From positions 2,954 to 66,953 of the IMG/VR virus record IMGVR_UViG_3300046791_000269: DNA of 64,000 nt. One strand, given 5' to 3'. The position numbers and the translations under genes were made by a program. Positions within the stretch are counted from its first letter, which is position 1, and each line of letters starts with the position of its first letter. Shown piece after piece: positions 2,246 through 55,526 of the stretch. The notes under the pieces are model-generated. The model made no database searches. It was not told where the DNA came from and worked only from the letters and a program-made list of their open reading frames with translations. The stretch is from a virus.

Positions 2246-2572
2246 ATGTCCGAGAAGGCCTGCGAGCTCTGCGGTTGCGTCGGTTGGCACGGCTGCATGG
2301 GTCCACAGCACATCAACGACTGTCGCTGGCTCGATGGCGCCGACTGCACCTGCGATTTCGAGGCACGGCTCACGCGCCACGCCGCGCTGTTCAGCGACCG
2401 CGAGCGCATGATCGCCTTTTGGCAGAGAGAAGCCGAAGAGCGGCGCGTAATCCGCGGGCTCGGGAAGAAGTCGGTGGACGGCATCGTCCATGTGAATTCG
2501 CGGGAGGGCTTCGCTTCCGTGAATTCTGCGGATGGCGTCATTCGCGCGGCGCTGCCTGCTCGTCACGGCTGA
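2246..2572 (+). CDS. Small Cys-rich protein (CELCGC..C..C..C zinc-binding-like N-terminus)
   Basis: Balanced composition. CELCG motif is shared with the N-terminus of the HNH endonuclease at 6959. Confidence 0.45.
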   Translation: MSEKACELCGCVGWHGCMGPQHINDCRWLDGADCTCDFEARLTRHAALFSDRERMIAFWQREAEERRVIRGLGKKSVDGIVHVNSREGFASVNSADGVIRAALPARHG

Positions 2573-3456: not shown

Positions 3457-3462
3457 GCGGGC

Positions 3463-3756
3463 TCAGCCGACCGCTAGAATCAGCCGCTCGCGCTGCTCGT
3501 ACGCCCGGAGCTGCTTCTCGAACGGCTGGCACTGAGGCACGCCGATGCAGGTCGGGCAGATCAGGGCGTCGCAGGAGTGACAGCGGCGGATGTCCCGCTT
3601 CTCCTTGCCCTGGCGGATGGCCATTGCGAGCCCCTGGAGCGTCACGTCCTTTTGCATCCGGACAATCCGGTTGCAGTGCGCACAAGTAAAGGTCTCGATC
3701 TCCTCGGTAGCTTCCCCGGGGACGATGATCTGGCTGTAGCCCTTGGCTCGATTCAT
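3463..3756 (-). CDS. Small zinc-ribbon protein (CxxC..CxxC..CPTC)
   Basis: Four Cys pairs. Real start may be an internal one. Confidence 0.45.
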   Translation of the reverse strand: MNRAKGYSQIIVPGEATEEIETFTCAHCNRIVRMQKDVTLQGLAMAIRQGKEKRDIRRCHSCDALICPTCIGVPQCQPFEKQLRAYEQRERLILAVG

Positions 3757-4151: not shown

Positions 4152-4381
4152 AGCTCGTCACGAGACTGGCCAGAGAGGCCGGCGGGAATATTCGATGGGA
4201 GCGCTATAACGAGGATGCGCCGCAGCCGATCCCCATGAGTTTCCGCGATGACAACCGAAGATTTGTCGTCAAGGTCATGCTCGAAGACGGACGGTCTGTG
4301 CTCCTCGATCTTGAGGTGCAGGACGATGCCGCCGAGTCCTCACGACCGCGACGCGCTAGCCGCCGTGTAAATCAAACATGA
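4148..4381 (+). CDS. Hypothetical protein (77 aa)
   Basis: Stop/start overlap with 3783-4151. Confidence 0.4.
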   Translation: MKLVTRLAREAGGNIRWERYNEDAPQPIPMSFRDDNRRFVVKVMLEDGRSVLLDLEVQDDAAESSRPRRASRRVNQT

Positions 4382-4832
4382 GATGCACCCGCGGAGTAGT
4401 CCCCGCGTTCCAGACCGCGTGACGCTCCCGTGTGTTGATCTCGTAAGAAAAGCCGGCCGCCATCCGGTGGACAGCGTCGCCGGAGATGAACATGGCGTCG
4501 GGGTTCGTCAGTAGCGGGACGTGGATCCGCGTGACCCAGTCGTCCCCGAGTTCGTCCGTGTGCGGCTCGATGAATGCGCCGGGCATCACGACTGAGAGCA
4601 GCCGGTTGCGCTCGCGGTAAGCCTTGAGCGGGGCCGGCGTCGCTGCGCGTGCTAGCTCGTCCGTCACGGCCCCGAACGACTGCCACGCCAAATCGGTGAC
4701 CATGGCGGGACGAATCAGACCGTCGGGAAGCCGCGTCTGCTGCGGCCAAAGATCGAACGGGATCGCCGCTACCCATTCGACGACTCGACTAAGCGTCAAG
4801 GCATCTAGGGGCAGCGGCTTTCCTTGCGTCAC
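4356..4832 (-). CDS. Cupin-fold 2OG/Fe(II) oxygenase, aspartyl/asparaginyl beta-hydroxylase family-like
   Basis: HxD...H triad candidates (IEPHTDELG ... RIHVPL), typical of the AspH domain. Confidence 0.5.
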   Translation of the reverse strand: MTQGKPLPLDALTLSRVVEWVAAIPFDLWPQQTRLPDGLIRPAMVTDLAWQSFGAVTDELARAATPAPLKAYRERNRLLSVVMPGAFIEPHTDELGDDWVTRIHVPLLTNPDAMFISGDAVHRMAAGFSYEINTRERHAVWNAGTTPRVHLMFDLHGG

Positions 4833-6958: not shown

Positions 6959-7528
6959 ATGGATCGAGTCTGCGAACTCTGCGGTTCTAAATTCCGCGTG
7001 GCGCCCTACCTGGCCAAGCGTGGCTATGCGCGCTTCTGCTCGCGCCTGTGTTTCAAGTCGCGAACTGACGACGCCCTCTTTTGGGAGAAGGTCAATCGTG
7101 ATGGTCCCATTGTCCGTGAGGAACTCGGACAGTGCTGGGTCTGGACCGGCGGAACAACAACCGGCTACGGCTCGGTCAGGCTGAAAGAGCTACAGCGTTC
7201 CGTGCTCGCGCATCGCTACTCGTGGAAACTGGCGCACGGGGAATGGCCGGCCCTGTGCGTCTTGCACAAGTGCGACAACCGCCCGTGCATACGCCCGGAG
7301 CATTTGTTCCTTGGAACACACGCCGACAACACCGCAGACATGATGCGCAAGGGGCGCCACCGCCAGGCGCCTCTACGTGGCGCCGATCACCCTATGTCCA
7401 AGCTCACTTGGGAGCAGGTCCGGGAGATTCGGGCCAGCAGCGAGAAGAACGCGGACATCGCTAGACGGCTCGGCATAGTCCCTGAACACATCTCACGCAT
7501 CCGCGGCGGCCACGTCTGGCGCGAGTAG
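6959..7528 (+). CDS. HNH homing endonuclease (HNH_3/AP2-like)
   Basis: CWVWTG..GYG..HR..HKCDNRPCIRPEHLFLGT..DN core, opposite strand to the surrounding tail genes. Confidence 0.85.
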   Translation: MDRVCELCGSKFRVAPYLAKRGYARFCSRLCFKSRTDDALFWEKVNRDGPIVREELGQCWVWTGGTTTGYGSVRLKELQRSVLAHRYSWKLAHGEWPALCVLHKCDNRPCIRPEHLFLGTHADNTADMMRKGRHRQAPLRGADHPMSKLTWEQVREIRASSEKNADIARRLGIVPEHISRIRGGHVWRE

Positions 7529-7630
7529 CACTCATCCGCACAGCTCACCGCGCCCAGATCGGACCAGCACGGAGGCAACCGACCGGGACGAGCGTGGCGC
7601 GGTGAGCTCTACGGATTCGGCGCTGTCAGA

Positions 7631-8401
7631 TCAGAGCGAGCCGCCGTCGATCGTCATGTCGATCCATTGGAGCGTGAGCGCGTTGGCCAGGGAGTTGGCG
7701 CCGCTCTCACCAGTGATCTTCAGTGCCCAGAACATGGTGCTCGACGGTGCAATGCTCTCGACGACGTTGAGTTGAATGCCGTGCGCGGCGTCGTAGATGA
7801 CAGCGGTGGCCGACGTGTCAGCCTGACCACCAACGAGCGCGCTCGAAAGTCCGCTCCCGGTCGAGACGTAGCGGTAGAGATCGATGCGCGGCATGTTGGC
7901 CGGCTTGCTGCCGCCGTGGACGTTGCCGCCCGCAACATCGCCGAGCACGTGGGCCGTGACGGTGATGAGCGTGCCGGCGCGAATCGTTACCGGCAGTTGG
8001 AAAAGCGCGATGTCGCTGGACGAGTTCCCAGTCTGTACGAAATTGAACGTTCCGCCGCCGGACGAGACCGACGACCACGCGCTCGAGTGGATGGGCCGCG
8101 GGAAGAACCCGACGACCGTTGAGCCGAGGGCCTTCCCGGGAAGGGACTCCTTCAACCACTTGAAGTTCTGGAGGAGCGGCTTGGCAATCGCGCGGAAAGC
8201 GTTCGATGCCGTGAGCCGCGTGTCGTCGGGGACCGTGACGTACTGCGTGAGCGTCGCCGGAACTGTGAGGAGGTTCTCCGGGACGCCTGCGCTATTGCCG
8301 GTGATCGTGTTGTAGATCCAGCGGGTTCGGTCGGCGAGGCGGTCGACGCCATCCAAAACTGTGGCCGGATAGTCCGTGTCCCCGACCGAGGGGGCGGGCA
8401 C
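7631..8401 (-). CDS. Tail fiber / receptor-binding structural protein (256 aa)
   Basis: Position within the fiber cluster. Confidence 0.5.
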   Translation of the reverse strand: MPAPSVGDTDYPATVLDGVDRLADRTRWIYNTITGNSAGVPENLLTVPATLTQYVTVPDDTRLTASNAFRAIAKPLLQNFKWLKESLPGKALGSTVVGFFPRPIHSSAWSSVSSGGGTFNFVQTGNSSSDIALFQLPVTIRAGTLITVTAHVLGDVAGGNVHGGSKPANMPRIDLYRYVSTGSGLSSALVGGQADTSATAVIYDAAHGIQLNVVESIAPSSTMFWALKITGESGANSLANALTLQWIDMTIDGGSL

Positions 8402-28496: not shown

Positions 28497-29360
28497 TCAG
28501 TCGATGAGCGAGGCCGGATCGATTCCGAGTGCCTCGAACTGCTGGAGTGTTCTGGTTGCGGGATCGCCGCTGAGCGGCTGTCCGCCGCCGCCACTTCCGG
28601 GGACACGCGGACCGGGTGGTCCGCCGCCGCCAGTGGGCTTGGGTGCTGCCCGAAAAAGCTTCATCCCTGGCTCTTCGAGAAGAACCGGGATCGCTTCCTC
28701 GAGCGCGATGTCCTCGTCTGCTTCCGGTGCGCCCTTGTACGGGGCGCGCTTCACGCGGAAGAGCGCGTTTCCCTGTTCGTCGACCTTCAGCCGCCCCTGA
28801 ACCAGGGTGAGATGATCGATCGCAATGTCGGTCATGCCGGGCGCGAGCTTGTCGGCGAGCCCCGAGCGGAGCTTCAGCTTCGCTGCGTCAAGCTTTCGAT
28901 TCGTCTCCGACTCGGCACGTAGGCGCGCCTCTTCCTTGCGCGCGGTCTCACTCGCCTCGAGCTTCGTAGCAAGTTCTTGGAGCTGCCGAGCTACAGCGTC
29001 GTCGCTGGCCGCCTTGCCGCCCTTTGCTTTGCCGCCGTCACCGCTGCCGCCGCCAGAACCGCTGTCGTCGGGCTTTGGGATGAGTTCGGTTACGACGGGG
29101 CCAATCAGGCCCTTCCAGTCGACGCCCTTGAGTTGCTCAGCAAGCGCAGGCTGGCGCTTGAGATGACTCGTGACGGCCGCGTTGACGGTCTGGCCAATGG
29201 CCGCGAGCTGCTCTTCCGAGAAGAGCGGCTTCGGCGGATCTCCACCGCCGCCATCGTCTCCAGCCTTGTCCAACAGGGGGAACGGTCGATTGAATAGGAG
29301 CATGCCAATCCTCTTCCGGCCGATGGCTGTGGCCGTTCGCCTTGTGGGGGCGTTACCCAT
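28497..29360 (-). CDS. Capsid scaffolding protein
   Basis: Gly-rich linkers plus a long charged coiled coil, located between the portal and capsid genes. Confidence 0.65.
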   Translation of the reverse strand: MGNAPTRRTATAIGRKRIGMLLFNRPFPLLDKAGDDGGGGDPPKPLFSEEQLAAIGQTVNAAVTSHLKRQPALAEQLKGVDWKGLIGPVVTELIPKPDDSGSGGGSGDGGKAKGGKAASDDAVARQLQELATKLEASETARKEEARLRAESETNRKLDAAKLKLRSGLADKLAPGMTDIAIDHLTLVQGRLKVDEQGNALFRVKRAPYKGAPEADEDIALEEAIPVLLEEPGMKLFRAAPKPTGGGGPPGPRVPGSGGGGQPLSGDPATRTLQQFEALGIDPASLID

Positions 29361-36835: not shown

Positions 36836-37027
36836 GCCGAAGTCGGGCGGGGTCAGAAAGTCCACGTCGGCTCGTCCGTATCCGCCGTCGAATGGCGCCT
36901 CAAGCCGAGGCAGTGCGTCGCCGTCGACGGGAATGCGCACGCAATGCCCGGCACCGTCCTTGCGGGTCTCGCGGCGCCGCCAGAACTTGCAGCTCCCGCA
37001 CCTCGGCTCCGGCCCGGAGATCATCAA
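36803..37027 (-). CDS. Small Cys-containing protein (74 aa). Its C-terminal 10 aa (CVLHEPKGTE) are encoded by the repeat
   Basis: Cys pairs CGSC..C; ATGA coupling. Confidence 0.4.
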   Translation of the reverse strand: MMISGPEPRCGSCKFWRRRETRKDGAGHCVRIPVDGDALPRLEAPFDGGYGRADVDFLTPPDFGCVLHEPKGTE

Positions 37028-37950
37028 GCCACCATCTCTCTTCCCCCAACCCGCGCTAGCCTCGCCATCGTCTCCGCCACGCCCTCAACGAGCGACCCGG
37101 TAAACGTCATTCCGGCCCGCTCGATCTTCTCTCGCGACACCACGTAGGAAAGCTGGTTCATGATGGGCGAGTCGACGAACACGGTCTCGAGCCTCGGTGC
37201 GTGTCGCCGGATGATCTCGACGATCTGCCCAACCGTCGCGTTTTCGGTCACAACGTTGTAGGTCTCGCCACCGAACAGGCCGCGCTCCACAGCGAACCAG
37301 ATCGCTCGGCACGCATCGAGGATGTCGAGATACGGCCGCCCCTGATCGAGCGCCGTCCGCCACACCGTGATCGGCTGCCCCGTGCTCGCCTGCCAACAGA
37401 ACCGGTTGACCGCCGTGTGAAAGCGCATGCCCGGTGAGATTCCGAAGATCGTTCCAAAGCGCAGGATACATGCGTCGTGTCCGCCGGCCCTGAGCATCTC
37501 CTCGCCCCTGGTCTTGCTCTCTGCGTAGGGGCTCTGTGGGACGACCGGAGACGCCTCGGTGACGATGCCCTCGTTCTGCCCGTAGACGCTCGTGGACGAG
37601 GCGAACACCGGACGGGCGCCGACTGCACGACAGGCCGCCGCCACTCGCTCGGTTCCCTGGAAGTTGACGCGCTCAACCTCAGCCGCTCGTCCAAAGCTCG
37701 TGGCCGCGTCCGTCAGGGCCGCGAGATGAACGACCGCCCCGCAGCCGTCGAGTAGCGGCTCTAGCTCACTCGTCACCACGTCGGCCTCGGTGAACTGAAA
37801 TCCGATACCGCGTGGCAAATCGAACAGCGAGCAGAGCCGCTGGGTCGAAAGGTTGTCGATGAGCCGGACCTCCTCGAATTGGCCGGGCTGGATCGTGCGG
37901 ATGAGCGCCGAGCCGATGTGGCCGAGTGCTCCAGTGATAGCGATTTTCAT
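37024..37950 (-). CDS. NAD-dependent sugar-nucleotide epimerase/dehydratase (SDR family)
   Basis: MKIAITGALGHIGSALIR Rossmann motif. Internal ATG of track ORF 37024-38496. Confidence 0.8.
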   Translation of the reverse strand: MKIAITGALGHIGSALIRTIQPGQFEEVRLIDNLSTQRLCSLFDLPRGIGFQFTEADVVTSELEPLLDGCGAVVHLAALTDAATSFGRAAEVERVNFQGTERVAAACRAVGARPVFASSTSVYGQNEGIVTEASPVVPQSPYAESKTRGEEMLRAGGHDACILRFGTIFGISPGMRFHTAVNRFCWQASTGQPITVWRTALDQGRPYLDILDACRAIWFAVERGLFGGETYNVVTENATVGQIVEIIRRHAPRLETVFVDSPIMNQLSYVVSREKIERAGMTFTGSLVEGVAETMARLARVGGREMVA

Positions 37951-38825
37951 GGGTGCTCCGTGTAGTGCGCGCGAGTGAGCTCGATACCCTCTGTGATCCA
38001 CACGGCCGGACGCCAGCCCGTGGCGTGGCGGAATGCCGACGTGTCCATCACCGCGTTCCGTGTGTCGATCGCAGCGAGTACGGTGTCCGGCGTTACGTGC
38101 TTGAAGTTGCCGCCCGCGGCAATCGCCGCCACCCTTGCGAATAGGTGAGCCGCTCCAGAGCCGACAACGAAGTGCCGCCCGTTCGTCGTGGCCTGGTTGG
38201 CCGCAGCGAGCATGAACGCCCGACACACGTCGTCGAGGTAGACGTAGTCCCGGGTCCAGTCTCCGGCGCCGTAAACCTGGACCGGTTCGCCCCTGGTTGA
38301 CTGTCGGATCATTCGGTTCAAGACGCCGCGCGTCGGGCCGCTCTCGCTCGTGCTTTGGCCGTAGACGTTGGCCAGTCGGAGCGTGCAGCCGCGTGCCCAT
38401 CCGCGCCGGCAGGCGTGCTCGAGCGCCATCTCGGCCATGCATTTGTGTAGGTCGTAGACGGTGAGCGGTGCGTCGGTCATGCCCTCGTGAATGCAAGACT
38501 CTGCCGGCACGCCAACCTGCGTGGCCGCGCCCGCGAATACGATGAACGGCTTTGGCTCGTGCCCGCGGAACTCCTCGATTAGCCCGTACATGGGCTCGAC
38601 GTTCGCGGACAGATCCTCGAGCGGGTCCTCGTCAGCGTCGCGCGCGCTCGTCTGCGCAGCAAGGTGGAAGACCACCTCGACATCCTTGTCTGGGCCAACA
38701 GCCGCCCCCGCCTCCACGAGCATTTGTACCAGACGCGAGCCGATGTACCCGCTTGCGCCCGTGACGGCGCAGCGTCGGCCCTTGAGCCACTCGATCGCGT
38801 TCAACGGATCTCCCTCTTCAGCCAA
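37947..38825 (-). CDS. NAD(P)-dependent SDR reductase/epimerase (RmlD-like size)
   Basis: VTGASGYIGSRL motif; about 292 aa. Confidence 0.75.
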   Translation of the reverse strand: MAEEGDPLNAIEWLKGRRCAVTGASGYIGSRLVQMLVEAGAAVGPDKDVEVVFHLAAQTSARDADEDPLEDLSANVEPMYGLIEEFRGHEPKPFIVFAGAATQVGVPAESCIHEGMTDAPLTVYDLHKCMAEMALEHACRRGWARGCTLRLANVYGQSTSESGPTRGVLNRMIRQSTRGEPVQVYGAGDWTRDYVYLDDVCRAFMLAAANQATTNGRHFVVGSGAAHLFARVAAIAAGGNFKHVTPDTVLAAIDTRNAVMDTSAFRHATGWRPAVWITEGIELTRAHYTEHP

Positions 38826-39253
38826 TCGTAGCCGATGGCTGGATCGTTGTGCGGGATCCGTAGCTCGTCGTCCGGGTTGTACTCATGCGAGGTCACATAC
38901 AGGAGCTCGCAGTCGGTGAGAGCCCGGCAGCCGTGCGCCACGTTCGTGGGCACCCTGACGAGCCGAGCCGGGTGGTCGTCGCCCATCAGGATCTCTTGCG
39001 TCTCCTTGTGCGTCGGGTTGCCGTCTCGCATGTCATGCATGACGAGGAGCAGGGCGCCGCGCACCACGTACCACCAATCGATCTGCCGGCGATGCAAGTG
39101 CCACGCCTTGATCGCGCCGGCCCGCATGCGCGAGTGGCTCAGTTGCCCGAAGCCCTCAGCGAAACACGCGTCGGTCTTTCGGACGATCTCGCGGAAAAAT
39201 CCCCGCTCGTCGTCGCGGGTGTCCAGGTTTCTGAGGACAACGCCGGAAATCAT
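38801..39253 (-). CDS. Cupin NDP-sugar 3,5-epimerase / 3,4-ketoisomerase (RmlC/FdtA-like)
   Basis: ERGFFRE..WHLHR His pair; about 150 aa cupin. Confidence 0.65.
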   Translation of the reverse strand: MISGVVLRNLDTRDDERGFFREIVRKTDACFAEGFGQLSHSRMRAGAIKAWHLHRRQIDWWYVVRGALLLVMHDMRDGNPTHKETQEILMGDDHPARLVRVPTNVAHGCRALTDCELLYVTSHEYNPDDELRIPHNDPAIGYDWLKREIR

Positions 39254-40431
39254 AGGATCTTGACCTCCGGCACGTGCGTGATGAACCGGCCACCGCGCTC
39301 GCGATAGGCTGTCTCTTTCGCCAGGATCTCAGCCGCGTGGTTCCAGGCGAACAGGAGCATGTAGTCCGGTGGGTCAGCGTAGAAACGCTCGGGCGAGACA
39401 ACCGGGATGTGGACGCCGGGAGAGAGCTTCCCTTGTTTCCCTGGCGTCGTGTCGGTGATGTACTCGATGAGTTCGGGTCCGATGCCGGCGTAGTTCGTGA
39501 CGGTCGTGCTCTTGGACGTTGCCCCGTAAGCTGCCACGCGCTTTCCGTCACTCTTGAGCGTCTCGAGCAGGCCGCGCAACGTTGCGCACTTCGCGTCGAC
39601 TCGTTCCTGGAATGCTGCGTAGGCCGCCTCGTCGCCAAGACCCAACACAACCTCCTTGCCGAGCAGGCGGAACACATCGTCTGAGGCCGCCCGCTCGCCC
39701 CGGCACGCCACGGTGTACCGCATTGAACCGCCGTGCGTCACTTGCCACTCCGCGTGGACAAGCTCGAGGCCGGCCGCGTTCGCCAGTGCCGCAACAGACG
39801 TGAGCGAGAAGTAGGACGCGTGCTCGTCGTAAATCTGATCGAACGAGCAAAGCCTCAGAATGTCCCCCAGGTAGGGTTCCTCGAAAATGAACAGGCCGGG
39901 CGGTTTCAAAAGGACAGCAACGCCCCGAAAGAAGTCCGCCGGGTCCGGGACGTGGCAGACGACGTTGGACGCGATCACGGCGTCGGCTTGCCCGTGCTCC
40001 TTGACCAGATCGCCGGCCCGCTCCTCCGTGAAGAACCCGCCCACGACGGTGAGGCCACGTTCACGCGCCGCATAGGCAACGTTGGCGCTCGGCTCGATGC
40101 CGAGATGCCGCCGACCCGCGAAATGCTGGAGCATGATCCCGTCGTTGCAGCCAATCTCAACGACGAGCCCACCCGATGGCGTGCGTGACTTCACCGACTC
40201 GGCGAACGCGGCGAAGTGCTTGGCCATGGCGGAACTCGACGAGGAGTAGAACGCATACTGATCGTGGAACATCCGCTCGGGTGGGACGAGGTCGAGCAGC
40301 TGGACCAGCTTGGTATCCGGGTCGAAACCCGCGCGGAGCGGAAAGCGGGGCTCGTCTGCGATCTCTGCCGCGTCGAGAAAGCCGTTGGCTATCGGCATCG
40401 GGCCGAGGTCGAGGAAGGGGCGGAGACTCAT
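39250..40431 (-). CDS. NDP-hexose C-methyltransferase-like SAM-dependent methyltransferase (TylC3/TcaB9 family)
   Basis: LDLGPMPIANGFL N-terminus, class I SAM fold (VVEIGCNDG), C-terminal C-methyltransferase-like domain. Start inside repeat copy 2. Confidence 0.7.
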   Translation of the reverse strand: MSLRPFLDLGPMPIANGFLDAAEIADEPRFPLRAGFDPDTKLVQLLDLVPPERMFHDQYAFYSSSSSAMAKHFAAFAESVKSRTPSGGLVVEIGCNDGIMLQHFAGRRHLGIEPSANVAYAARERGLTVVGGFFTEERAGDLVKEHGQADAVIASNVVCHVPDPADFFRGVAVLLKPPGLFIFEEPYLGDILRLCSFDQIYDEHASYFSLTSVAALANAAGLELVHAEWQVTHGGSMRYTVACRGERAASDDVFRLLGKEVVLGLGDEAAYAAFQERVDAKCATLRGLLETLKSDGKRVAAYGATSKSTTVTNYAGIGPELIEYITDTTPGKQGKLSPGVHIPVVSPERFYADPPDYMLLFAWNHAAEILAKETAYRERGGRFITHVPEVKIL

Positions 40432-40460
40432 TCCGTTCCTTTTGGTTCGTGCAAAACGCA
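40428..40460 (-). repeat. 33-bp direct repeat copy 2
   Basis: TCATTCCGTTCCTTTTGGTTCGTGCAAAACGCA. Confidence 0.9.
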
Positions 40461-41090
40461 CAGCTTCCCGATCGAGTACGCCAAATTCTCTCGCGCCTTT
40501 TGCTCCCACCGCTCGCGTCCGTAGTCGGTGAAATAGATGCGCGGCCGCTCGAGGAACTTCTGGAGAATGGCCGCCCGCCCTGCCGCGAATTGCTCGTCGC
40601 CGATGAAAGGCCACTCGAGCCGGACGAGCCGCTCGTAGTCGTCGAAAGCCTCACGGTCGGCGCCGAGGATGGCGATGTCAGCATCAGATAGGATCGCCTC
40701 GTCCGGTTTCAAGTCGTGCGCGTCGTGGGCCGTGGCCATGATGAGCCGCTCAACCGTTGCCGCGAGGTCTGGGCGGCCGGCAGTCGTGAGCATCTTCCGC
40801 GCGCAGTCCGCCGATGCGAACTCGTCATCAGGTAGTCCCTGCAAAACGAAGTCGTGATACCAGGCGGCCCAGCGCAGAGCGGCCGTCTCGTCGGGCGTTC
40901 CGTTCCACATCGGCGCCGCCGTGATCTGATCGATGCGCGTCAGAACCCACATGATGTGATGGAGCGTGTGGTAGTGGCGCCGTGCTCCGCTGTACGCCTG
41001 GACGAGCGAGAGGAAAACGGCGTTCCCGTTGCCCTGACAGTTGGTGTCGCCCCAGAGGCGGTTGAATTCGATGCGGGGGATGAGGTTCAC
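40428..41090 (-). CDS. HD-superfamily metal-dependent phosphohydrolase-like protein
   Basis: RHYHTLHH ... WYHDFV His/Asp motifs. C-terminus CVLHEPKGTE is encoded by repeat copy 2. Confidence 0.55.
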   Translation of the reverse strand: MNLIPRIEFNRLWGDTNCQGNGNAVFLSLVQAYSGARRHYHTLHHIMWVLTRIDQITAAPMWNGTPDETAALRWAAWYHDFVLQGLPDDEFASADCARKMLTTAGRPDLAATVERLIMATAHDAHDLKPDEAILSDADIAILGADREAFDDYERLVRLEWPFIGDEQFAAGRAAILQKFLERPRIYFTDYGRERWEQKARENLAYSIGKLCVLHEPKGTE

Positions 41091-41924: not shown

Positions 41925-42246
41925 ACTTCGCGTGAAGTTCCTCGTATTGTCTGCGCATGCCAGCCTCGCGTTGCTTCTCGAACTCCACGCGCTTGGCGGC
42001 GTACCAGGCGTTCACCTCGTCTTGGCTCAGAACGCCAAGCAGAGCCAGATCGTGGACGTGCGGCTCGTCTTCACCAGACAGCTCTTTCATGCTCGCGCTG
42101 TCGTAGTCGTTCTCGCAATCAATCTGCACGATGCCGCCCTCGAACACGAGTGTCAGTTCCGACGAGTCGAACCGCGCACCCTCCAGTCGCTGGCCAACGG
42201 CGTCCTCCAGCTTGATCACGGGTTTTGGTAGTTTGATTGGGATCAT
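41905..42246 (-). CDS. Hypothetical acidic protein (113 aa)
   Basis: Track ORF with good composition. Confidence 0.45.
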   Translation of the reverse strand: MIPIKLPKPVIKLEDAVGQRLEGARFDSSELTLVFEGGIVQIDCENDYDSASMKELSGEDEPHVHDLALLGVLSQDEVNAWYAAKRVEFEKQREAGMRRQYEELHAKFGKDPK

Positions 42247-42455
42247 TTGCTCTCCTCGTAAAACCGCTCACACTCCGCCAGCCGCTTTCGGTACTGATCG
42301 AGGTCGGTCCGGTCGGTGGGTGGGCCGCCGGTACAGTGGAGAATGTCCGAGCGCGCAGCCACGCTGTCCATGTGGCTGTTGATCACGTAGTAGGCGGCCA
42401 CGACCCCGCCGATGAGGACCGCGATGGCAAAGCCTGGGGCGAATAGGTCGATCAT
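42243..42455 (-). CDS. Small membrane protein (about 70 aa)
   Basis: MIDLFAPGFAIAVLIGGVVAAYYVI transmembrane helix. Confidence 0.4.
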   Translation of the reverse strand: MIDLFAPGFAIAVLIGGVVAAYYVINSHMDSVAARSDILHCTGGPPTDRTDLDQYRKRLAECERFYEESK

Positions 42456-42670
42456 TGCTCCACATCCCGCCCGTACGGACAGTCCGGATCTCCGCACGTC
42501 GGGCAGATCAGTCGCGTCTTTTTCTTCGCTGCAACGACAGGCTTCCCGCCGAGCAGCTTCGCGATGTTGTCGAGGGTCGAGTCAGTTGAGGGCGCCCCGT
42601 CCAGCGGCTTGAACGCCGGAGTCTCCGAAACTGACGGCTGGTCCAAAGTACGCTTCTTCTGATCCTGCAT
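42452..42670 (-). CDS. Small disordered protein with a C-terminal zinc ribbon (CPTCGDPDCPYG)
   Basis: Overlaps the AAA+ gene 3' end by 89 nt. Start is uncertain. Confidence 0.35.
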   Translation of the reverse strand: MQDQKKRTLDQPSVSETPAFKPLDGAPSTDSTLDNIAKLLGGKPVVAAKKKTRLICPTCGDPDCPYGRDVEQ

Positions 42671-44198
42671 GGAATGTCGCCTTTCGCACGTTGCTCGGCA
42701 CGCGGCCGATGCTCTCGATCTTCTCGAAAATAGCCCCCAGGTTGTTTACGTCCGCCATCTCGCGGAATGACTCGGTCACGGCTGCACGGATGTCGTCGGC
42801 CGTGATCCCGTTCGCCACGCCCTGCTCACGATCGCGCCGAATGGCACGAGACGCTGCACGGTTCACGAATCCCGAGATGACGGCGCCGCTCAGCATGTCA
42901 CGGAGGCACAGGACTTCACGCGGGCCTTCCTCAAATAGCAGCTCGTACAGCGCGAGCTTGTCCGAATACATGAGCTGAACGGCTACGGAGCCGAGCTCGC
43001 CGGCATCCCCTGGTCGGCCACGCATGGCCAGTCGGAAAACCTGCTCTGCCGATTCAGCATCGGGCCGCCCAACCTTCACGCGCCGATCGATGCGCCCGTC
43101 CCGCACGATGGCCGGGTCGAGCGAATCGGGCCGGTTTGTGCTCAGCATGACGAACGCTCCGGAGTCTTCCAGGCCGTCCATCTCGGCAAGGAAGCTCGGA
43201 ACTGTCATGGACGCCACGCCGAGACCGCTCCCGCTGCCACCGGTAGCCAGGAGTGCCTCGGCTTCGTCGATGAAGACGATCGCCGGCCGCCCAGTCTTCC
43301 GCTTGTGGTCGCGCGCGCGGTCGAAGATGCTCCGCACGGTGGCCTCGGACTCGCCGACCCACTTGCTCAGAACCTCGGCGCCCTTGACGTAGATGAAACC
43401 CGAGCCGTCGCCCATGGCGTTTGCGGCGGCCTTCCCGAGCATCGTTTTCCCGCAGCCGGGCGGGCCGTAGAGCAAGACGCCGCGTGATGGTCTCTGCCCG
43501 TAGCCAGCGTAAACGTCCGCGTACTTGGTGGGATACTCGATGGCCTCACGGAGCGCTTCCTTGGCCTCCTCGAGGCCGCCGATGTCGCCCCACGTGACCG
43601 TCTCGACGTTGACGGCAAAGCGGTTCTTGTCGCGGCCGAGGTTCTTCATCGCGACCATGCCAGACGGATCGAGCTGCACGCGGTCACCGGACTCGGGCAG
43701 CGGATCCATGCCAGCGGCAACAGACGCAGACGCCGACTCTTGCCCGCGCGAGAAGTAAACCTCGTGGCCGTCGATTCGATCGATCGTCACGATCGACCCG
43801 AATACAGCCGGCGTTTTCAACACGCCGATCGGCTGGCTCGTGGACATGAGCGTCCGCACCTGGCTGCCAATCTCGCCACCAGGAGGCAGGTTCACCTCGA
43901 GCGTTACGCCACGAACGGCAACGATGCCACGCCCGTCTTCCGTCTTGCCCGTAACAGTGCCGATCGCGCAGGGCTCTGAGTTGATCTTCTTGATGAAAGC
44001 GTCTTGCTGCTCGAGCTTCTGGCCGGCATCCCGGAGCGCCATCTCGAGTTGTTCCTCGCGGGACTGCGGAGGGCGAGGCGGCCCAAACGGGCTGGTTTGC
44101 ATCATTCGGTACATTTGCTCGCGCATCATTTCGCTTGGGTCTTCAATGATCCGCCCGTTCGTGATCCTGAACTCGCCTGTCGTGAAATCTTTTGCCAT
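42582..44198 (-). CDS. AAA+ ATPase of the proteasomal-ATPase type (ARC/Mpa/PAN-like unfoldase)
   Basis: N-terminal coiled coil plus OB-like region, then VLLYGPPGCGKTMLGKA (Walker A), IVFIDEAEAL (Walker B), second region of homology and a lid domain. ATG at 44198 with an AAGGGA RBS. Confidence 0.75.
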   Translation of the reverse strand: MAKDFTTGEFRITNGRIIEDPSEMMREQMYRMMQTSPFGPPRPPQSREEQLEMALRDAGQKLEQQDAFIKKINSEPCAIGTVTGKTEDGRGIVAVRGVTLEVNLPPGGEIGSQVRTLMSTSQPIGVLKTPAVFGSIVTIDRIDGHEVYFSRGQESASASVAAGMDPLPESGDRVQLDPSGMVAMKNLGRDKNRFAVNVETVTWGDIGGLEEAKEALREAIEYPTKYADVYAGYGQRPSRGVLLYGPPGCGKTMLGKAAANAMGDGSGFIYVKGAEVLSKWVGESEATVRSIFDRARDHKRKTGRPAIVFIDEAEALLATGGSGSGLGVASMTVPSFLAEMDGLEDSGAFVMLSTNRPDSLDPAIVRDGRIDRRVKVGRPDAESAEQVFRLAMRGRPGDAGELGSVAVQLMYSDKLALYELLFEEGPREVLCLRDMLSGAVISGFVNRAASRAIRRDREQGVANGITADDIRAAVTESFREMADVNNLGAIFEKIESIGRVPSNVRKATFHAGSEEAYFGPAVSFGDSGVQAAGRGALN

Positions 44199-44303
44199 CC
44201 GTTTTTCCCTTTTCTGTTCCGCTCTTGCTTTCTTGCCTGTTGATGTTCGCTTCGCCTGATTCCGTTGCCAGCGCTCGCGCGCTCGATCTTCCGCGCGTCT
44301 CAC

Positions 44304-44528
44304 CTACGCAGCCCTCCCGTCCTCCAGCGCTCGCCTCTCCAACTCCCCCGCAACCCACTCGCCCGTCTTCCTGAAAACGTCGCTCAGCGCGTCGTCGAGA
44401 TCGAAATCGAGAACCTCCCGATGCACCGGCGGCGGCGTGTAGGCTGGGCCGGGGCGGGAGGCGTGGATCACCACTTGGTATGTGCCGTCACGTTTGCGGA
44501 CCAAATCGAAACTTAGCACTTGGTCCAC
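44304..44528 (-). CDS. Hypothetical protein (74 aa)
   Basis: Track ORF. Confidence 0.4.
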   Translation of the reverse strand: MDQVLSFDLVRKRDGTYQVVIHASRPGPAYTPPPVHREVLDFDLDDALSDVFRKTGEWVAGELERRALEDGRAA

Positions 44529-44962
44529 GGCTCCTCGTCGCCAAAGGTTGCGGTGACGAACGGGATGTCATCCTCGGGACCAGCGGTCGAACCGGAACTG
44601 CCGCCGTAGTCCGCGCCGTCGTAGGTGCCGTCGTCGCCGGGGGGAGGCTTGGTTGCTGCCCCGGCACCCGGCTTTGCTCCGCCACCGAACGTCAGCTCCG
44701 AGACGCGGCAGTCGAGGTAACTCTTCCCATTGTGCTCCCGAATCGAGAGCTCGCCCGTGATGACCACGAACGTTCCCTTGCGGAGATGCTGGACGAGAGC
44801 CTCGCCACGCTTTCCCCAAAGACTCGCGCCGATCCATTGCGTCTTCTCCTCGCCCTTCACCTTCTTCGACGTGGCGATGCTGAACGAGCAGACCTGATCG
44901 CGGCCTGCGGTGCGGAGTTCGGCGTCTTTTCCTAGGCGGCCTGCGGCTGTAACGGTTAGCAC
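44513..44962 (-). CDS. ssb: Single-stranded DNA-binding protein
   Basis: OB fold, Gly-rich linker and acidic C-terminal tail DDIPF. Confidence 0.85.
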   Translation of the reverse strand: MLTVTAAGRLGKDAELRTAGRDQVCSFSIATSKKVKGEEKTQWIGASLWGKRGEALVQHLRKGTFVVITGELSIREHNGKSYLDCRVSELTFGGGAKPGAGAATKPPPGDDGTYDGADYGGSSGSTAGPEDDIPFVTATFGDEEPWTKC

Positions 44963-44976
44963 TTATGTTGGTCCTT

Positions 44977-46002
44977 TCAGGGGTAGCGAGGGTCTTCGTC
45001 TGCAATGTTGTGGAGGTCCGCCAAAACTTCAGGCGGCGGCAGCAGTGGGTCATGAACAGTCCGGAAGCTCGCGCTCCGCTGGTCCCAGTCGAGTGGCACC
45101 TTCGCGCCCCGCGGCCCGTTCTTCACCTTGTCGACGTGAATGCACTTGGTGCCGGCGGGAACAATCACGTCGCCGCGGTCGTCCTCGATGGCCTTGTCCG
45201 GCTCGAACGCAATCAGGATCACCTCGGCCGCGTTGGCGATGTCGCGACACTCGCGGATGTTGTGCCGGTTCGGAACCTTGGTCTTGCCGTCCTGACTGAA
45301 CGTGAGTTGAGACAGGATGACCCCAGCGATCTTCGACTCCTTAGCCACGCGCCGGCAGACCTTCGCGATCTCCTTGTACTTGGTGCGCTCGTCCTGGTGC
45401 CGGTTCTTGGACTCGAATTCCTGGATGTAGTCGTAGGCGATGAGATCGATCGAGCAGTCCTTGATGATGCTGCGTAGATGCGGCTCGAGCCTCTCGATCT
45501 TCCAGCCGATCGCCTCGACGTAGACCGGCATCGGCCCCGCGTTGGTCTCAGCCTCGAGAACCTTTTGCCGGTCGTCGGGAGTCAGCTTGCCGTCGCGGTA
45601 CGCAATCGCGTCGATGCCAGTGCGGCGGACCATGAACCGATCGCCGTACAGCTCCTCGGGGTCCTCGGCAGAGACGATCAGAACCTTCTTTCCCTGGAGT
45701 AGGTTCTCGTCGGCGATCGAAACGAGCAGGCTTGTCTTCCCGACGGACGTGTCCCCGCCGATCAGCCAGACGAACCCCGGGCGGATCTTCCCGGTGATGT
45801 AGTCGAGCCGGTAGTGTCCCGTCGTCAGCCGCTTGTCGTCGCCCTGGCCGGCCGTGAAAGCGCGCTCGCGAGACGCGGTCATGATGTCCCGCAGCGAGCG
45901 AACACGCGGAACCTCGGCCGCAACGATGCGCGTTCCCTTCGTCGGGTCCGGGGATGCCGTGCCGGCCTTCAGGCTATCCGCTTCGTCGGGTTGCTTGCTC
46001 AT
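44977..46002 (-). CDS. DnaB-like replicative helicase (RecA-fold C-terminal domain)
   Basis: GGDTSVGKTSLL Walker A; DnaB C-terminal-type motifs. Confidence 0.75.
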   Translation of the reverse strand: MSKQPDEADSLKAGTASPDPTKGTRIVAAEVPRVRSLRDIMTASRERAFTAGQGDDKRLTTGHYRLDYITGKIRPGFVWLIGGDTSVGKTSLLVSIADENLLQGKKVLIVSAEDPEELYGDRFMVRRTGIDAIAYRDGKLTPDDRQKVLEAETNAGPMPVYVEAIGWKIERLEPHLRSIIKDCSIDLIAYDYIQEFESKNRHQDERTKYKEIAKVCRRVAKESKIAGVILSQLTFSQDGKTKVPNRHNIRECRDIANAAEVILIAFEPDKAIEDDRGDVIVPAGTKCIHVDKVKNGPRGAKVPLDWDQRSASFRTVHDPLLPPPEVLADLHNIADEDPRYP

Positions 46003-47033
46003 GCCAAAAGCTCCGGCTCGAGACGGCTCACCACCGCTCGGCCCCTGACTGTTTCGATGACCTCGCCCGCGTACCGTTCGCCAGCGTCGTCGATGTGCGT
46101 GCGGACGATCACGTCGCTGCCGTACGGTACGCGCTCAGCGAACCCGCTGTGCCAGCTCCCGGACATCACCCCGAGCACGGCCTCCGATGGACTCAGGATC
46201 GAGCGAGCCAGAAAGTCCGGCTCACCCTCGACGACCACGATCCGGCGCGGCCTGGCGTTGCCGCGGAGCCACCGTTGGGCCGATGCGTTCGCGAGCACGA
46301 GCCCGGACGCCTTGTGGCCAACCGGCGGGACACGCTTCGGCATCCCCTCGGCTCCGTTGACGAGCCACGCACGAACGGAGCGCATCTCGCCCGCGTAGTC
46401 GAACACCGGCAGGATCAAGCGGTGCCCGGTGGCCGTCCAGGCTCTCGCCGACGGCTGCCGGCCCTTGAACTTCGCCCACGACGGCACGCTCGAGCCGTGG
46501 GTCAGTGGGTGCAACGCGGCAGCCGAACCGGTCCGAGCCACCGCAGCCGGGTCGATCTCGCGGCCACGCAGCAGGCCAGACACCTCGGCATCCTCGGTGA
46601 CTGGAACGCATGCCGACCAGAGCAAAGCCACCTCGCTCGCCGGCGGGTAGTCCCGGGCCGGCTCCGGAGGCGGCAACGGAACGGCCCGGCGCTTTGGTGC
46701 CGGCTTGCCGCCGCGTAGCTCGTCCGCCTCGGCAGCCATCCCGGCGAGCTCGCACGCAGACGCCAGCGTCTCTCGGAACCGCCCCTCGAGCCCGTACACG
46801 GCCGCCACAAGCGTCAGCAAGTCCCCGGTCCACTTACACCCCCAGCACTTCACACCCACGCCGCCGTCGCGCTTGTGAATCGAGCACGAGCCAGTTTTCT
46901 CGGCATGCACCGGGCACAGGACCAGGACGTACGAGCCGCAGTCGTCGTGGACCTTGAGCCCGAGCGCGTCTGCAACCCGGCGCGGTGAAGCCAGTGCGCG
47001 GCGGACTTCTCGGGCTAGATCGCGCTCGGTCAT
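45999..47033 (-). CDS. DNA primase (zinc-binding CHC2 plus TOPRIM)
   Basis: CPVHAEKTGSCSIH zinc finger. ATG at 47033 overlaps the upstream stop. Confidence 0.7.
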   Translation of the reverse strand: MTERDLAREVRRALASPRRVADALGLKVHDDCGSYVLVLCPVHAEKTGSCSIHKRDGGVGVKCWGCKWTGDLLTLVAAVYGLEGRFRETLASACELAGMAAEADELRGGKPAPKRRAVPLPPPEPARDYPPASEVALLWSACVPVTEDAEVSGLLRGREIDPAAVARTGSAAALHPLTHGSSVPSWAKFKGRQPSARAWTATGHRLILPVFDYAGEMRSVRAWLVNGAEGMPKRVPPVGHKASGLVLANASAQRWLRGNARPRRIVVVEGEPDFLARSILSPSEAVLGVMSGSWHSGFAERVPYGSDVIVRTHIDDAGERYAGEVIETVRGRAVVSRLEPELLA

Positions 47034-47917
47034 ACCTGCCACTCCGAGCGCGGTCCGTAGCCGCCGGTTTCGTCGTTGGCGGGCGGCATCTCCGGTGGCT
47101 TGATCGGTCGCTTCTTGGGGTTGCTCCAGTCCCGGTGAACCCACCGCGAGCAACTCTGGTTCCATTCGGCATCGGTTCTGAAATCGGCGGTTTCCGCGAG
47201 GAAATGGCTACGGTGAGCATGAATTAGGGCGTCCTGGGCGAATCTTGGAATCAGTGCAACGTCGAGGCCCTTGCGGGTGATCTCTGTGGGCACCCATTCC
47301 GAGTGCATCGCGAAAGTACCGGGCTTGGTGTTGCGGGCGGCTGACTGCTCCTGCTCCTGTTCGTTCTCCTGCTCCTGATTTGCGCGCGGAGACTGTTCCG
47401 GTAACGGTTCGGCTAACTGTTTAGCAAACGGTTCCGATAACTGTTTGCGTGGTTTTGGGAACGTGTTTGGCAGACCGTTTGGGAAGCGGTTCCCGGCCCC
47501 TGACATGCCTGTTACCCAGTTGATGATCTCGGTCACGGCGGCATCGCGCAGGGAGCATTCCGGAACGAGCTCGATGTGTTTGGCCCAGCCACGGAGGACG
47601 TTCTCGTTCTTGGGCTGGTTCGACGGCACGTGGATCGACTTCGGCAGCCAGAGCACGCCAGCCTTCCAGTCTGCGTAAACCTTGCCGGTCGGCTTGTCGT
47701 CGGCGCCAGCGAGCTTCGAAAACGCCGTACGGAAAGCGCCGATCGACATTCCGAACTTGTGGGCCAGCTGCGGCTCGGAGGCTGGCCAGAGCCCTGCCAC
47801 GGGCGTCACGTGTGGGCCGGTGAGGAGACGGAACCAGACGAGCTGAGCCATGTGCGGCAGCGCACAGAACCACTCGTCCGCGTTGATGCGGCGATCGATC
47901 GAGCTGTAGAAGCTCAT
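47030..47917 (-). CDS. Replication initiator candidate with internal iterons
   Basis: Lies upstream of the primase and helicase genes. Peptide repeats KQLSEPFAKQLAEPLPEQ are encoded by DNA iterons. Confidence 0.5.
   Translation of the reverse strand: MSFYSSIDRRINADEWFCALPHMAQLVWFRLLTGPHVTPVAGLWPASEPQLAHKFGMSIGAFRTAFSKLAGADDKPTGKVYADWKAGVLWLPKSIHVPSNQPKNENVLRGWAKHIELVPECSLRDAAVTEIINWVTGMSGAGNRFPNGLPNTFPKPRKQLSEPFAKQLAEPLPEQSPRANQEQENEQEQEQSAARNTKPGTFAMHSEWVPTEITRKGLDVALIPRFAQDALIHAHRSHFLAETADFRTDAEWNQSCSRWVHRDWSNPKKRPIKPPEMPPANDETGGYGPRSEWQV
47391..47500. repeat. Iteron-like array: AAC(G/T)GTT(C/T) repeats at about 12-bp spacing inside the initiator gene (putative ori)
   Basis: gactgttcc, aacggttcg, aactgttta, aacggttcc, aactgtttg, gtgtttgg, ccgtttgg, gcggttcc. 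Confidence 0.5.
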
Positions 47918-54171: not shown

Positions 54172-54421
54172 CTAGGAGCGCTCCTGAGTGAATTGATGGT
54201 CACGACCGACGGGATGAAAGACGTTCAAGTACGCGGCGACCAAAAGAGCGACGCCGATCAGCGCGAGAAGTTTCCAGGCCCTCACCGCCAGGCCCTACCG
54301 TTCGCGATCACGAAGTCTCGATCGGTGCGCGACACGGCCCTGAGCCCCGGCGCACGAACCCGTAGCGCGGCGAAGACGAATGCAAAGCCGGACAGGGCGA
54401 GGAGGTAGGCGGCGAGCATTA
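54171..54421 (-). other. Two unlisted small transmembrane-peptide ORFs (about 37 and about 48 aa)
   Basis: VRAWKLLALIGVALLVAAYL.. and MLAAYLLALSGFAFVFAAL.. read manually from the sequence. Confidence 0.3.
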
Positions 54422-55387
54422 CTTCCCAACCATCGCCGGGCTCATGATGAACTGCTGCCCCGCCGGAACCATCATCACGCTGACGTTCGGTGAGAGCTTT
54501 TGCGCGAAGATGTACTGTGTCAGTGCCGGGCTGATGCTCTTCGCCAGCTTCTCGTTCGCCTCGGCCTCTTTGGAAGCAAGAACTAGGTTCGCGTCGGCTT
54601 GCTTCGTTGCGTTGATGAGCACCGCATCCGCCTTGCCGCGCGCTTGCTCGATTGCCTGGTCCGCTCGGGCACGCTCAGCCGCAACCTTTTCCCGCTCGGC
54701 GAGCGCAAGCTGGCTCTGCGTCTGCTTCTCCTCGATCGCCGCCTGGAACTTCTGATCGAACGCGATGTTGTCGATCAGCAGGTCCCGAACGTCGATGCTG
54801 TCCGAGCTGAGTTCCCGCTGGAGTCTGGCACGAACGGCGCGGCGGATGTCCTCACGGTGTGGAGCGATGTCCACCGACCCGTACTTGACGATCTCGTCCT
54901 TGTGGGCCTGGAGAACCCGGGGCGCCACGAGAACCTCGAAGTAGTTCGCGCCAACCTCACGATAGAGCCGCTGAATGTGTGACGGTGAAACGTGGATGTT
55001 CAGCGTGGCATTGACGTAGACTTGCTGCGTCTCCTTGCTGAAACAGTGCAGCGTGTCATCGTAGTCAGCGGTGCCGTCGTCTTTCCTATGCATGGCGAAC
55101 TTGTGCCCGAGCACCTGGATCGACGCCTGCTCGACCGACTGCCACGGGAGAACCCACTGCATTCCTTCCGGGCGCTGACCGGCGATGGCGCCGAAAGACC
55201 GGACGAGTCCGACGTTGCCGGCGTCCACGCTGTTGTACGACGAAACGGAGGTGGCGATGATCAGACCCGCGAGGCCAACAAGGAGCGCCACGAACCGGTA
55301 GGGCTTTACGTCCTCGTCCTTGCCCATGATCCAAACGATGGCAGCGAGAGCGGCGGCGAGCGAAACGAACAGAATGATGAAGCCCAT
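54419..55387 (-). CDS. SPFH/Band-7 (stomatin/prohibitin/HflKC-like) membrane protein
   Basis: N-terminal transmembrane helix, SPFH core and a C-terminal Ala/Gln/Glu coiled coil. Internal ATG (MGFIILFVSL). Confidence 0.7.
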   Translation of the reverse strand: MGFIILFVSLAAALAAIVWIMGKDEDVKPYRFVALLVGLAGLIIATSVSSYNSVDAGNVGLVRSFGAIAGQRPEGMQWVLPWQSVEQASIQVLGHKFAMHRKDDGTADYDDTLHCFSKETQQVYVNATLNIHVSPSHIQRLYREVGANYFEVLVAPRVLQAHKDEIVKYGSVDIAPHREDIRRAVRARLQRELSSDSIDVRDLLIDNIAFDQKFQAAIEEKQTQSQLALAEREKVAAERARADQAIEQARGKADAVLINATKQADANLVLASKEAEANEKLAKSISPALTQYIFAQKLSPNVSVMMVPAGQQFIMSPAMVGK

Positions 55388-55391
55388 GTGT

Positions 55392-55526
55392 TTATTTCCC
55401 TTGTGTGAATGTCTCAGGAAGAATTGACGCTCGAGTGCACTCCCGCCCCGCCTCAAGCCTCCCGAGCTGGTACGAGAGGAATACGGCGAGGGCGGCAATC
55501 AGGCACAGGACGGCTCGGTAGATCAT
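55392..55526 (-). CDS. Small membrane peptide (44 aa)
   Basis: MIYRAVLCLIAALAVFLSY; ATGA overlap. Confidence 0.35.
   Translation of the reverse strand: MIYRAVLCLIAALAVFLSYQLGRLEAGRECTRASILPETFTQGK

Follow-up and report, generated by a model that had tools for sequence, protein, structure and literature searches.

An Mpa/ARC-like AAA+ unfoldase gene in a temperate phage and its overlapping gene for a small Pup-like protein

The ATPase gene and its product

The stretch of DNA analysed here (hereafter the window) comprises 64,000 nucleotides (nt) of the IMG/VR virus record IMGVR_UViG_3300046791_000269, positions 2,954 to 66,953. Within it, a minus-strand gene for a AAA+ ATPase overlaps a gene for a mostly disordered protein of 72 amino acids (aa), and this pair is the subject of the present analysis. 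Both genes belong to a single run of closely spaced or overlapping genes that extends along the minus strand from 47165 to approximately 40400 (Table 1). The 538-aa open reading frame (ORF) of the ATPase, at 42582..44198 on the minus strand, contains the Walker A and Walker B strings (VLLYGPPGCGKT and IVFIDEAEAL) that a sequence-only reading of the window had reported, and its translation confirmed both. The protein is identical to a Joint Genome Institute (JGI) gene call, P0001, which already bears the name ‘proteasome-associated ATPase’. The Walker A motif (GPPGCGKT, G245-T252), the pore loop (KWVG, K279-G282), the Walker B residues (D311-E312) and the two arginines of the second region of homology (R366 and R369) are invariant in 70 homologues.

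An AlphaFold model built on the alignment of this 70-member family had a mean predicted local distance difference test (pLDDT) score of 88.6, with values above 90 in the N-terminal helix and in both of the beta barrels that follow it. The N-terminal coiled coil, OB-like domain and C-terminal lid that had been proposed from the sequence are recognisable in the model as a helix at residues 47-74, two barrels and a lid at residues 381-508. When compared with the PDB using Foldseek, the first 30 matches were all Mycobacterium tuberculosis Mpa (expectation value, E, 1e-34 to 1e-28), including structures 7PX9-7PXD, with 470-510 aligned columns, 28-30% identity and TM scores of up to 0.73; Rpt subunits came next. 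Amongst curated models the top match was TIGR03689 (pup_AAA, ‘proteasome ATPase’) at 269 bits, in which residues 46-486 aligned to positions 15-487 of a 512-position profile, although this score is below the curated equivalog cutoff of 504.75. The runners-up were one CDC48 domain (203 bits), PAN (176 bits) and FtsH (146 bits).

A sequence search of the PDB placed Cdc48/p97 at the top (170 bits for D2 and a summed score of approximately 300), because both of its AAA modules, D1 and D2, match the query. The best single-stretch matches that reach through the OB and lid regions were to Mpa/ARC, at 183 bits with the single sequence. With the profile of the 70-member family, Mpa was matched at 319-327 bits in a single stretch that included the OB region, beginning for 5KWA at profile position 54. 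Pfam recognised only PF00004 in the ATPase, its scan returning neither AAA_lid_3 nor the PAN OB domain, and none of the viral structures in BFVD had the full architecture of the protein. The ARC/Mpa/PAN-like architecture proposed earlier was thus borne out as the ARC/Mpa type, by the near full-length TIGR03689 match and by the first 30 Foldseek matches. The accompanying objection, that the closest homology might lie with FtsH, ClpX or another common AAA clade, did not hold: FtsH scored lower, the matches listed do not include ClpX, and the protein does have the coiled coil and OB domains. We conclude that the protein is very probably an Mpa-like unfoldase.

The resemblance to Mpa/ARC (TIGR03689; PDB 5KZF, 5KWA, 7PX9-7PXD) covers the coiled-coil helix, the two OB barrels, the single AAA module with an aromatic pore loop and arginine fingers, and the lid with its beta insert. 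Mpa/ARC is the top match by both profile and fold, and in both cases a small disordered partner gene lies nearby. Differences are found in the low identity and sub-cutoff score given above, in the lack of a GQYL tail and in the lack of dop, pafA and prcAB; moreover, the ATPase is encoded by a phage, and its relatives are found in the candidate phyla radiation (CPR), DPANN and Bacteroidales, but not in Actinobacteria. PAN and Rpt1-6 likewise have a coiled coil, an OB ring and a AAA ring and give the next-best fold matches, with PAN models scoring 150-176 bits; however, their single OB domain, HbYX tail and AAA_lid_3 are not found in the phage ATPase, which has two OB domains and a GALN tail. 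For the AAA core, raw sequence scores are highest with Cdc48, p97 and VAT, but these have two AAA modules and a double-psi-barrel N-domain, whereas the phage ATPase has one AAA module, a coiled coil and OB domains.

The ends of the ATPase deserve separate comment. Its C-terminus (...AAGRGALN) has no HbYX motif, no GQYL and no penultimate Tyr, whereas the true Mpa relatives that the same searches recovered from IMG/VR terminate in GQYL or GMYL. The earlier observation that HbYX is missing, and the deduction that the protein probably does not dock to a 20S proteasome, are both upheld by the ...GRGALN tail. At the other end, the protein may be 573 aa long and start at GTG 44303 instead of ATG 44198, because this GTG abuts the upstream stop codon, has a strong Shine-Dalgarno sequence (GGGAGGG, 44312-44318) 8 nt upstream, and adds 35 basic residues that resemble the extensions of homologues, among which an ‘RW..(K/R)Q..KR’ stretch is shared. 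The two starts may represent two isoforms or a mis-called start.

The small protein and its family

The 72-aa ORF overlaps the 3' end of the ATPase gene by 89 nt. When the neighbours of the ATPase were clustered across 80 viral loci, only one conserved neighbour emerged beyond antisense shadows of the ATPase itself, namely a membrane protein of approximately 110 aa, and in most loci a small hydrophilic ORF occupies the gap between the two genes. In 36 of 48 phage loci of the family, the 1 kb downstream of the ATPase contains an ORF of no more than 135 aa that has a Cys cluster among its final 25 residues; the corresponding rate in 3,663 control ORFs is 7.9%. A hidden Markov model (HMM) of the family, built without the window protein, found the 72-aa ORF as its sole significant match among 536 small ORFs in the window (E = 3.1e-11). 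As this held-out match covers residues 1-71, the small ORF, its ATG at 42670 and the 89-nt overlap are taken to be real, and we are confident that the ORF belongs to a conserved family of ATPase partners.

Members of this family share a layout of three parts. The first is an N-terminus of the form ‘MxxQxKK(R)’, which runs into a Gly-rich or acidic stretch; the second is a motif, ‘(V)P-x-[VI]-D-D-h-L-x-x-h-D-x-A-h’, with a short helix (PSTDxxLxxIxxLL); and the third is a basic stretch that leads to a cluster of cysteines at the C-terminus. The window protein fits all three (MQDQKKR...; PSTDSTLDNIAKLLG; LICPTCGDPDCPY) and ends ...CPYGRDVEQ. Its structural model is mostly of low confidence (mean pLDDT 61, predicted template modelling score 0.21), consisting of a helix at residues 29-41 and a tiny hairpin around the cysteines. 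The sequence-only reading had described a small, disordered zinc-ribbon protein with a gene overlapping that of the ATPase, of which the ORF and the overlap stand, but not the zinc ribbon. In a canonical zinc ribbon, four metal ligands are supplied by two CxxC (or CxxH) knuckles on a pair of beta-hairpins. As the window protein has only three cysteines (C56, C59 and C64), arranged as C-x2-C-x4-C, it was ruled out as a canonical zinc ribbon and is instead a member of the Pup-like family; its relatives carry CxC or CCC at the extreme C-terminus.

A blind phmmer search with the 72-aa query against 1.84 billion representative proteins yielded two clear relatives. One, P0135 (‘...VPDISDILKQLD...LICNVCGDPDCPMGKDVYE’), is encoded 9 nt downstream of a 512-aa ATPase relative, and the other, P0136, reads ‘MQDQKKR...IPSTDAVLGDIERLIG...’. 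Neither of these nor the window protein carries a name in any database checked, and scans of the 72-aa protein against Pfam, PHROGs, NCBIfam and PADLOC gave no matches.

The overlapping arrangement, with both reading frames conserved, also occurs in three related loci. The dual-coding stretches lie at 42582-42670 in the window, at approximately 7640-7735 in L163, at approximately 5320-5412 in L164 and at 1-210 in L165. In each frame a different product is encoded, the ATPase tail (...Q..G.G..N*) in one and the N-terminal third of the small protein in the other, and the ATPase stop codon falls within conserved S-T-D codons of the small ORF. In L163 and L164 the small ORF was left uncalled by gene callers, which overlook it in these close relatives owing to its overlap with the ATPase gene. 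Among the 70 close homologues, the ATPase terminates with Asn in 35 and with Ala in 16 (51 together), a pattern for which the overlap alone is insufficient, because many of those genes have no downstream overlap; the residue could act as a degron or in docking. For the subfamily of the window, the idea of the terminal Asn as a docking signal was down-weighted, the Asn and stop codons falling within the S-T-D codons just described. Some loci encode two paralogous Pup-like proteins (L005 at 7441-8054; L088 and L091 at approximately 3300-3560), one example from L091 reading ‘...ETDRLLDEIDEILEADE...GCGSCWG’.

The family resembles Pup (PF05639) in its length of approximately 60-90 aa, in being mostly disordered and in being encoded beside an Mpa-type ATPase. 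Further points of likeness are an MxQEQxKR-type N-terminus that gives way to a Gly-rich or acidic stretch, and a ‘(D)DxLxEIDxxL’-type amphipathic helix. The Pup-like layout is illustrated by proteins from L028 (MSAQEQIKKRSHKGGGGGGSNDF...VDEVLRNLDSDI) and L086 (...VPEVDDLLGEIDQLL...CGC). An HMM was built solely from seven genuine Pup sequences (ending ...FVQ(K/Q)GG(Q/E)) taken from true Mpa loci. Run over 12,796 small ORFs drawn from the window and from all loci, it returned 35 non-seed matches at E ≤ 10, 30 of which were the ORF directly downstream of the ATPase, a position held by only 2.1% of the ORFs searched (p ~5e-46, hypergeometric). The best matches were Bacteroidales proteins (MKRRFRQKQD...ENVDIDDVIQEIDTHLE; E = 3e-5) and CPR members came next, the family relatives as a whole being matched at E values from 3e-5 to 7. 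The HMM of the small family reciprocally matches one true Pup. Alignment of the family to Pup with hhalign gave a probability of 64% (P = 6.5e-5) and placed the helix motif on the Pup helix; an alignment led by the window protein gave 49.5% against M. tuberculosis Pup and covered the helix only.

Several results weigh against a relationship with Pup. The Pfam Pup model matched none of eight small proteins of the family at E ≤ 10, and the likeness is limited to approximately 16-25 residues in one acidic amphipathic helix, for which convergence is possible. The window protein was itself unmatched by the Pup HMM and is tied to Pup only transitively, through its family. As the loci are related to each other and are not phylogenetically independent, the p-values are inflated and overstate the support. 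Moreover, the defining C-terminal GGQ or GGE of Pup, together with its ‘...FVxxYVQKGGQ’ context, is absent and replaced by a C-terminal Cys cluster, and the phage system has neither ligase nor depupylase. Because of the missing Pfam match, the single short helix and the inflated p-value, we label the family ‘Pup-like’ only. From these sequence comparisons, common descent with Pup appears probable but is unproven.

The conserved membrane protein of approximately 110 aa was identified by Pfam as DUF1360 (PF07098) and is present in 26 of the 80 viral loci. In 42 loci from both phages and CPR (L004-L048 and L085-L150; for example, L023 3075-3461 and L086 6460-), its gene comes after those of the ATPase and the small protein, and it has the conserved motif SCPYCxSHW. 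Its occurrence tracks the type of Cys tail. DUF1360 is next in line in 36 of the 38 loci where the small protein has a bare CxC or CC at its extreme C-terminus, and is missing in eight of the ten with an internal C-x(1,2)-C-x4-C knuckle, which is the type found in the window (Fisher p = 5e-6 between types). A search of all six frames of the window found no DUF1360. We infer that the two-Cys tail and the CxxC of DUF1360 could form a joint metal site or disulfide, tethering the Pup-like protein and the unfoldase to the membrane, and that the three-Cys knuckle may be a self-contained or differently partnered version.

Distribution and genomic surroundings

Phage-sized metagenomic contigs and IMG/VR contain many full-length relatives of the ATPase with 40-69% identity; in IMG/VR, 80 loci were collected from contigs of tens of kb to several hundred kb. 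Relatives are surrounded by small early genes, recombination genes and methylases. Cellular relatives occur in CPR (Saccharibacteria and Parcubacteria), in DPANN archaea, in metagenome-assembled genomes (MAGs) of Bacteroidales and in one Pseudobdellovibrionaceae MAG, while genuine actinobacterial Mpa is only approximately 32% identical to the window ATPase. Dop/PafA-like genes were found only beside true Mpa genes, with none in the phage, CPR or Bacteroidales loci. In the window itself, Pfam or PHROGs scans that covered most ORFs of at least 120 aa found neither a ligase (Dop/PafA) nor a 20S or other peptidase.

A protein search of phage records gave distant matches only, covering no more than 54% of the query, the best being Brevundimonas phage proteins named ‘proteasome-associated ATPase’. 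The protein of Brevundimonas phage Polewnik (L082, 3566-4987) is the only relative from a cultured phage and matches only residues 202-492 of the query (the AAA module and lid). It carries CGDPNCMEC in its own N-terminus, similar to the Cys knuckle of the small protein, and may be a fusion. In Bacteroidales MAGs (L106-L127), the ATPase and a Pup-like ORF with no Cys tail (MKRRFRQKQD...IDDVIQEIDTHLE...) lie directly downstream of ABC-transporter-like genes, which is a cellular context.

Table 1. Features of the ATPase locus and its surroundings in the window (positions are those of the window)
Feature	Position	Strand	Remarks
Primase-like gene	45999-47165	-	
DnaB-type helicase gene	44977-46002	-	
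SSB gene	44513-44962	-	
74-aa ORF	between the SSB and AAA+ genes	-	
Mpa/ARC-like AAA+ unfoldase gene	42582..44303	-	538 aa from ATG 44198, or 573 aa from GTG 44303; stop TGA 42582-42584
Possible basic N-terminal extension (MRRAEDRARERWQRNQAKR...)	44199..44303	-	GTG 44303 start
N-terminal long helix, residues 47-74, predicted coiled-coil arm	43977..44060	-	pLDDT 92-96; aligns to Mpa
Two tandem OB-type beta barrels, residues 77-126 and 136-188	43635..43970	-	AlphaFold model, Mpa alignment
Classical AAA module, residues ~200-380	43059..43601	-	PF00004 2.3e-33; invariant columns
Lid/C-terminal domain with beta insert, residues 381-508	42675..43058	-	Model, Mpa alignment
Low-confidence C-terminal tail, residues 509-538 (...VQAAGRGALN)	42585..42674	-	Dual-coding with the small ORF
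72-aa Pup-like small protein gene	42452..42670	-	Mostly disordered; one helix and 3-Cys knuckle
Helix motif P27-G41 (PSTDSTLDNIAKLLG)	42548..42592	-	Aligns with the Mpa-binding helix region of Pup; modelled helix 29-41
Cys knuckle C56-P-T-C59-G-D-P-D-C64-P-Y66	42473..42505	-	
70-aa predicted single-pass membrane protein gene	42243..42455	-	ATG overlaps the small-ORF stop (ATGA)
Further short ORFs	between the 70-aa membrane protein and HD-like genes	-	
HD-like gene	40428..41090	-	phrog_19425 ‘phosphohydrolase’ 2.6e-27; no Pfam match
Sugar-nucleotide cassette	37024-41090		Two NAD-dependent epimerase/dehydratases, dTDP-4-dehydrorhamnose-3,5-epimerase-like cupin, C-methyltransferase, then the HD-like phosphohydrolase

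The window belongs to a temperate tailed phage, with a portal, large terminase, SU10-type capsid protein, tape measure, baseplate J/P2-I, integrase, DUF5131 and methylase. A near-identity DNA search with 12 kb against 50,697 phage records gave no matches. Within the minus-strand run that holds the ATPase, a consensus scan found no promoter-like sites, and the three terminator-like sites found are fewer than expected from shuffled sequence. No conservation of the 70-aa membrane protein was seen in relatives of the ATPase locus, which makes it an uncertain member of a module with the ATPase and small protein. The HD phosphohydrolase had been proposed to form a gene set with the ATPase; the gene exists, but the association does not extend to relatives, since a search of 166 related loci for homologues of the HD protein, and of five further short neighbours, found none within approximately 5-6 kb of the ATPase. 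It instead abuts the sugar-nucleotide cassette (Table 1), which may have a role in glycan or DNA modification.

Elsewhere in the window, a GH16 glycosyl hydrolase (2563-3456), an Asp/Asn beta-hydroxylase-like protein (4356-4832) and an SPFH/Band-7 protein (54419-55498) are encoded. A tRNA-Ser(CGA) gene at 29183-29258 on the plus strand lies inside the minus-strand ORF 28497-29360. Because of this tRNA gene, and because the ORF has no family match, the latter may be spurious or shorter than listed.

Proposed mechanism, alternatives and significance

In the actinobacterial system, a helix of Pup folds onto the coiled coil of Mpa and the N-terminus of Pup is threaded through the pore. By analogy, we think it somewhat probable that the ATPase and the small protein form a Pup/Mpa-like unfoldase pair which has no ligase or proteasome and works by docking and threading. 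The early/replication operon of the phage would then hold a two-gene module, comprising the ATPase and a translationally overlapping small protein. The ATPase would be hexameric, with coiled-coil arms, a double OB ring and one ATPase ring bearing the KWVG pore loop. The amphipathic helix of the small protein, at residues 27-41, could dock on a coiled-coil arm of the ATPase, so that its flexible, basic N-terminus would enter the pore and be gripped by the KWVG loops, both steps being modelled on Pup and Mpa. ATP hydrolysis would pull in the small protein along with whatever its C-terminal Cys knuckle holds. In many relatives this partner may be the DUF1360 membrane protein, and in the window phage it may be some other protein or a metal-bridged partner; the specific role assigned to the cysteines is held with less confidence than the docking and threading. 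The output would be unfolding or disassembly, i.e. remodelling, and most likely not degradation, because no proteolytic chamber is encoded and the ATPase has no 20S-docking tail. The position of the module in a replication or early operon, in the window as well as in relatives, suggests an early role, possibly in remodelling a host or phage complex.

A known precedent for an unfoldase of this kind that works apart from a proteasome is the Corynebacterium-type Pup-ARC system, in which pupylation serves for disassembly and not for degradation, using PafA/Dop and a GGE isopeptide link. The phage module is alike in having an unfoldase with no proteolytic chamber, but unlike it in having no conjugation enzyme. 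A broader version of the proposal, which we regard as tentative, is that a ligase- and proteasome-independent relative of Pup-Mpa exists across phages, CPR and Bacteroidales, in which a Cys cluster, acting via a shared metal site, a disulfide or a lipid, couples the cargo or the DUF1360 anchor in place of the GGE isopeptide, and the ring extracts or unfolds the cargo. On this tentative view, the module would constitute a new way to mark proteins for mechanical unfolding, adopted by phages during infection.

The small protein might, on the other hand, be a regulator or metal-binding adaptor, acting as an inhibitor, an assembly factor or a tether to a membrane or target via its cysteines, which is not threaded and for which the likeness to Pup is convergent or coincidental. 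The failure of the Pfam Pup model to match, and the restriction of the likeness to one short helix, would sit comfortably with such an adaptor, and the way in which the tail type tracks DUF1360 with its CPYC motif (36 of 38 versus 2 of 10) fits a tether. However, a basic, disordered MxxQxKKR N-terminus, a Gly-rich or acidic stretch and a Pup-like helix are together suited to a threaded tag and would not be explained by a tether alone, and the Pup HMM selectively recovers these downstream ORFs, so that we consider the adaptor rather unlikely. Still less probable is a degradative module, in which the ATPase would feed a host protease chamber (20S, HslV, ClpP or another) via a conserved C-terminal tail. 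Mpa, PAN and HslU do dock to proteases by their C-termini, Asn or Ala is the final residue in 51 of the 70 closest homologues, and the tail is conserved in the window subfamily. Nevertheless, this tail has none of the penultimate Tyr, HbYX or GQYL signatures, true Mpa relatives ending in GQYL or GMYL; in the subfamily the terminal Asn and stop are embedded in the S-T-D codons of the small ORF; the tail is of low confidence in the model; and no protease was found in the window scans.

We assign a similarly small chance to the module being an anti-defence, host-takeover, superinfection or defence device that unfolds one particular host protein, which is a statement of role and would be compatible with the threading mechanism. 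The module adjoins primase, DnaB and SSB genes, and its relatives lie among small early, recombination and methylase genes, as might be expected of a takeover function. Against this, PADLOC returned only generic AAA-core matches for the ATPase (IetA and TRIP13, no higher than 69 bits) and nothing for the small protein, the HD protein or the 70-aa membrane protein, leaving the defence or counter-defence function suggested by the sequence-only reading with no support from that source. In addition, cellular genomes of CPR and Bacteroidales have this module too, which points to a more general function.

The annotation of the ATPase is not new, as automatic pipelines already call it a ‘proteasome-associated ATPase’. 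No description of the module was found in the literature searched, coverage of which was incomplete, so its novelty is unproven. What appear to be undescribed are the partner family, its ligase- and proteasome-free spread in phages, CPR and Bacteroidales, and the dichotomy between Cys tails and DUF1360. In practical terms, the overlapping small ORF is one that gene callers miss in close relatives.

The Pup-Mpa system, with its ties to a ligase and the 20S proteasome, is generally seen as peculiar to Actinobacteria, UBact being a second case. The present result points to a wider and older pairing, that of an Mpa-type unfoldase with a Pup-like disordered partner in the absence of either. If this is true, it would offer a testable route to the evolution of Pup recognition, and the Cys tail and DUF1360 would represent a new attachment chemistry or membrane tether. 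The target of the phage unfoldase could in turn expose a new step in host takeover or replication.

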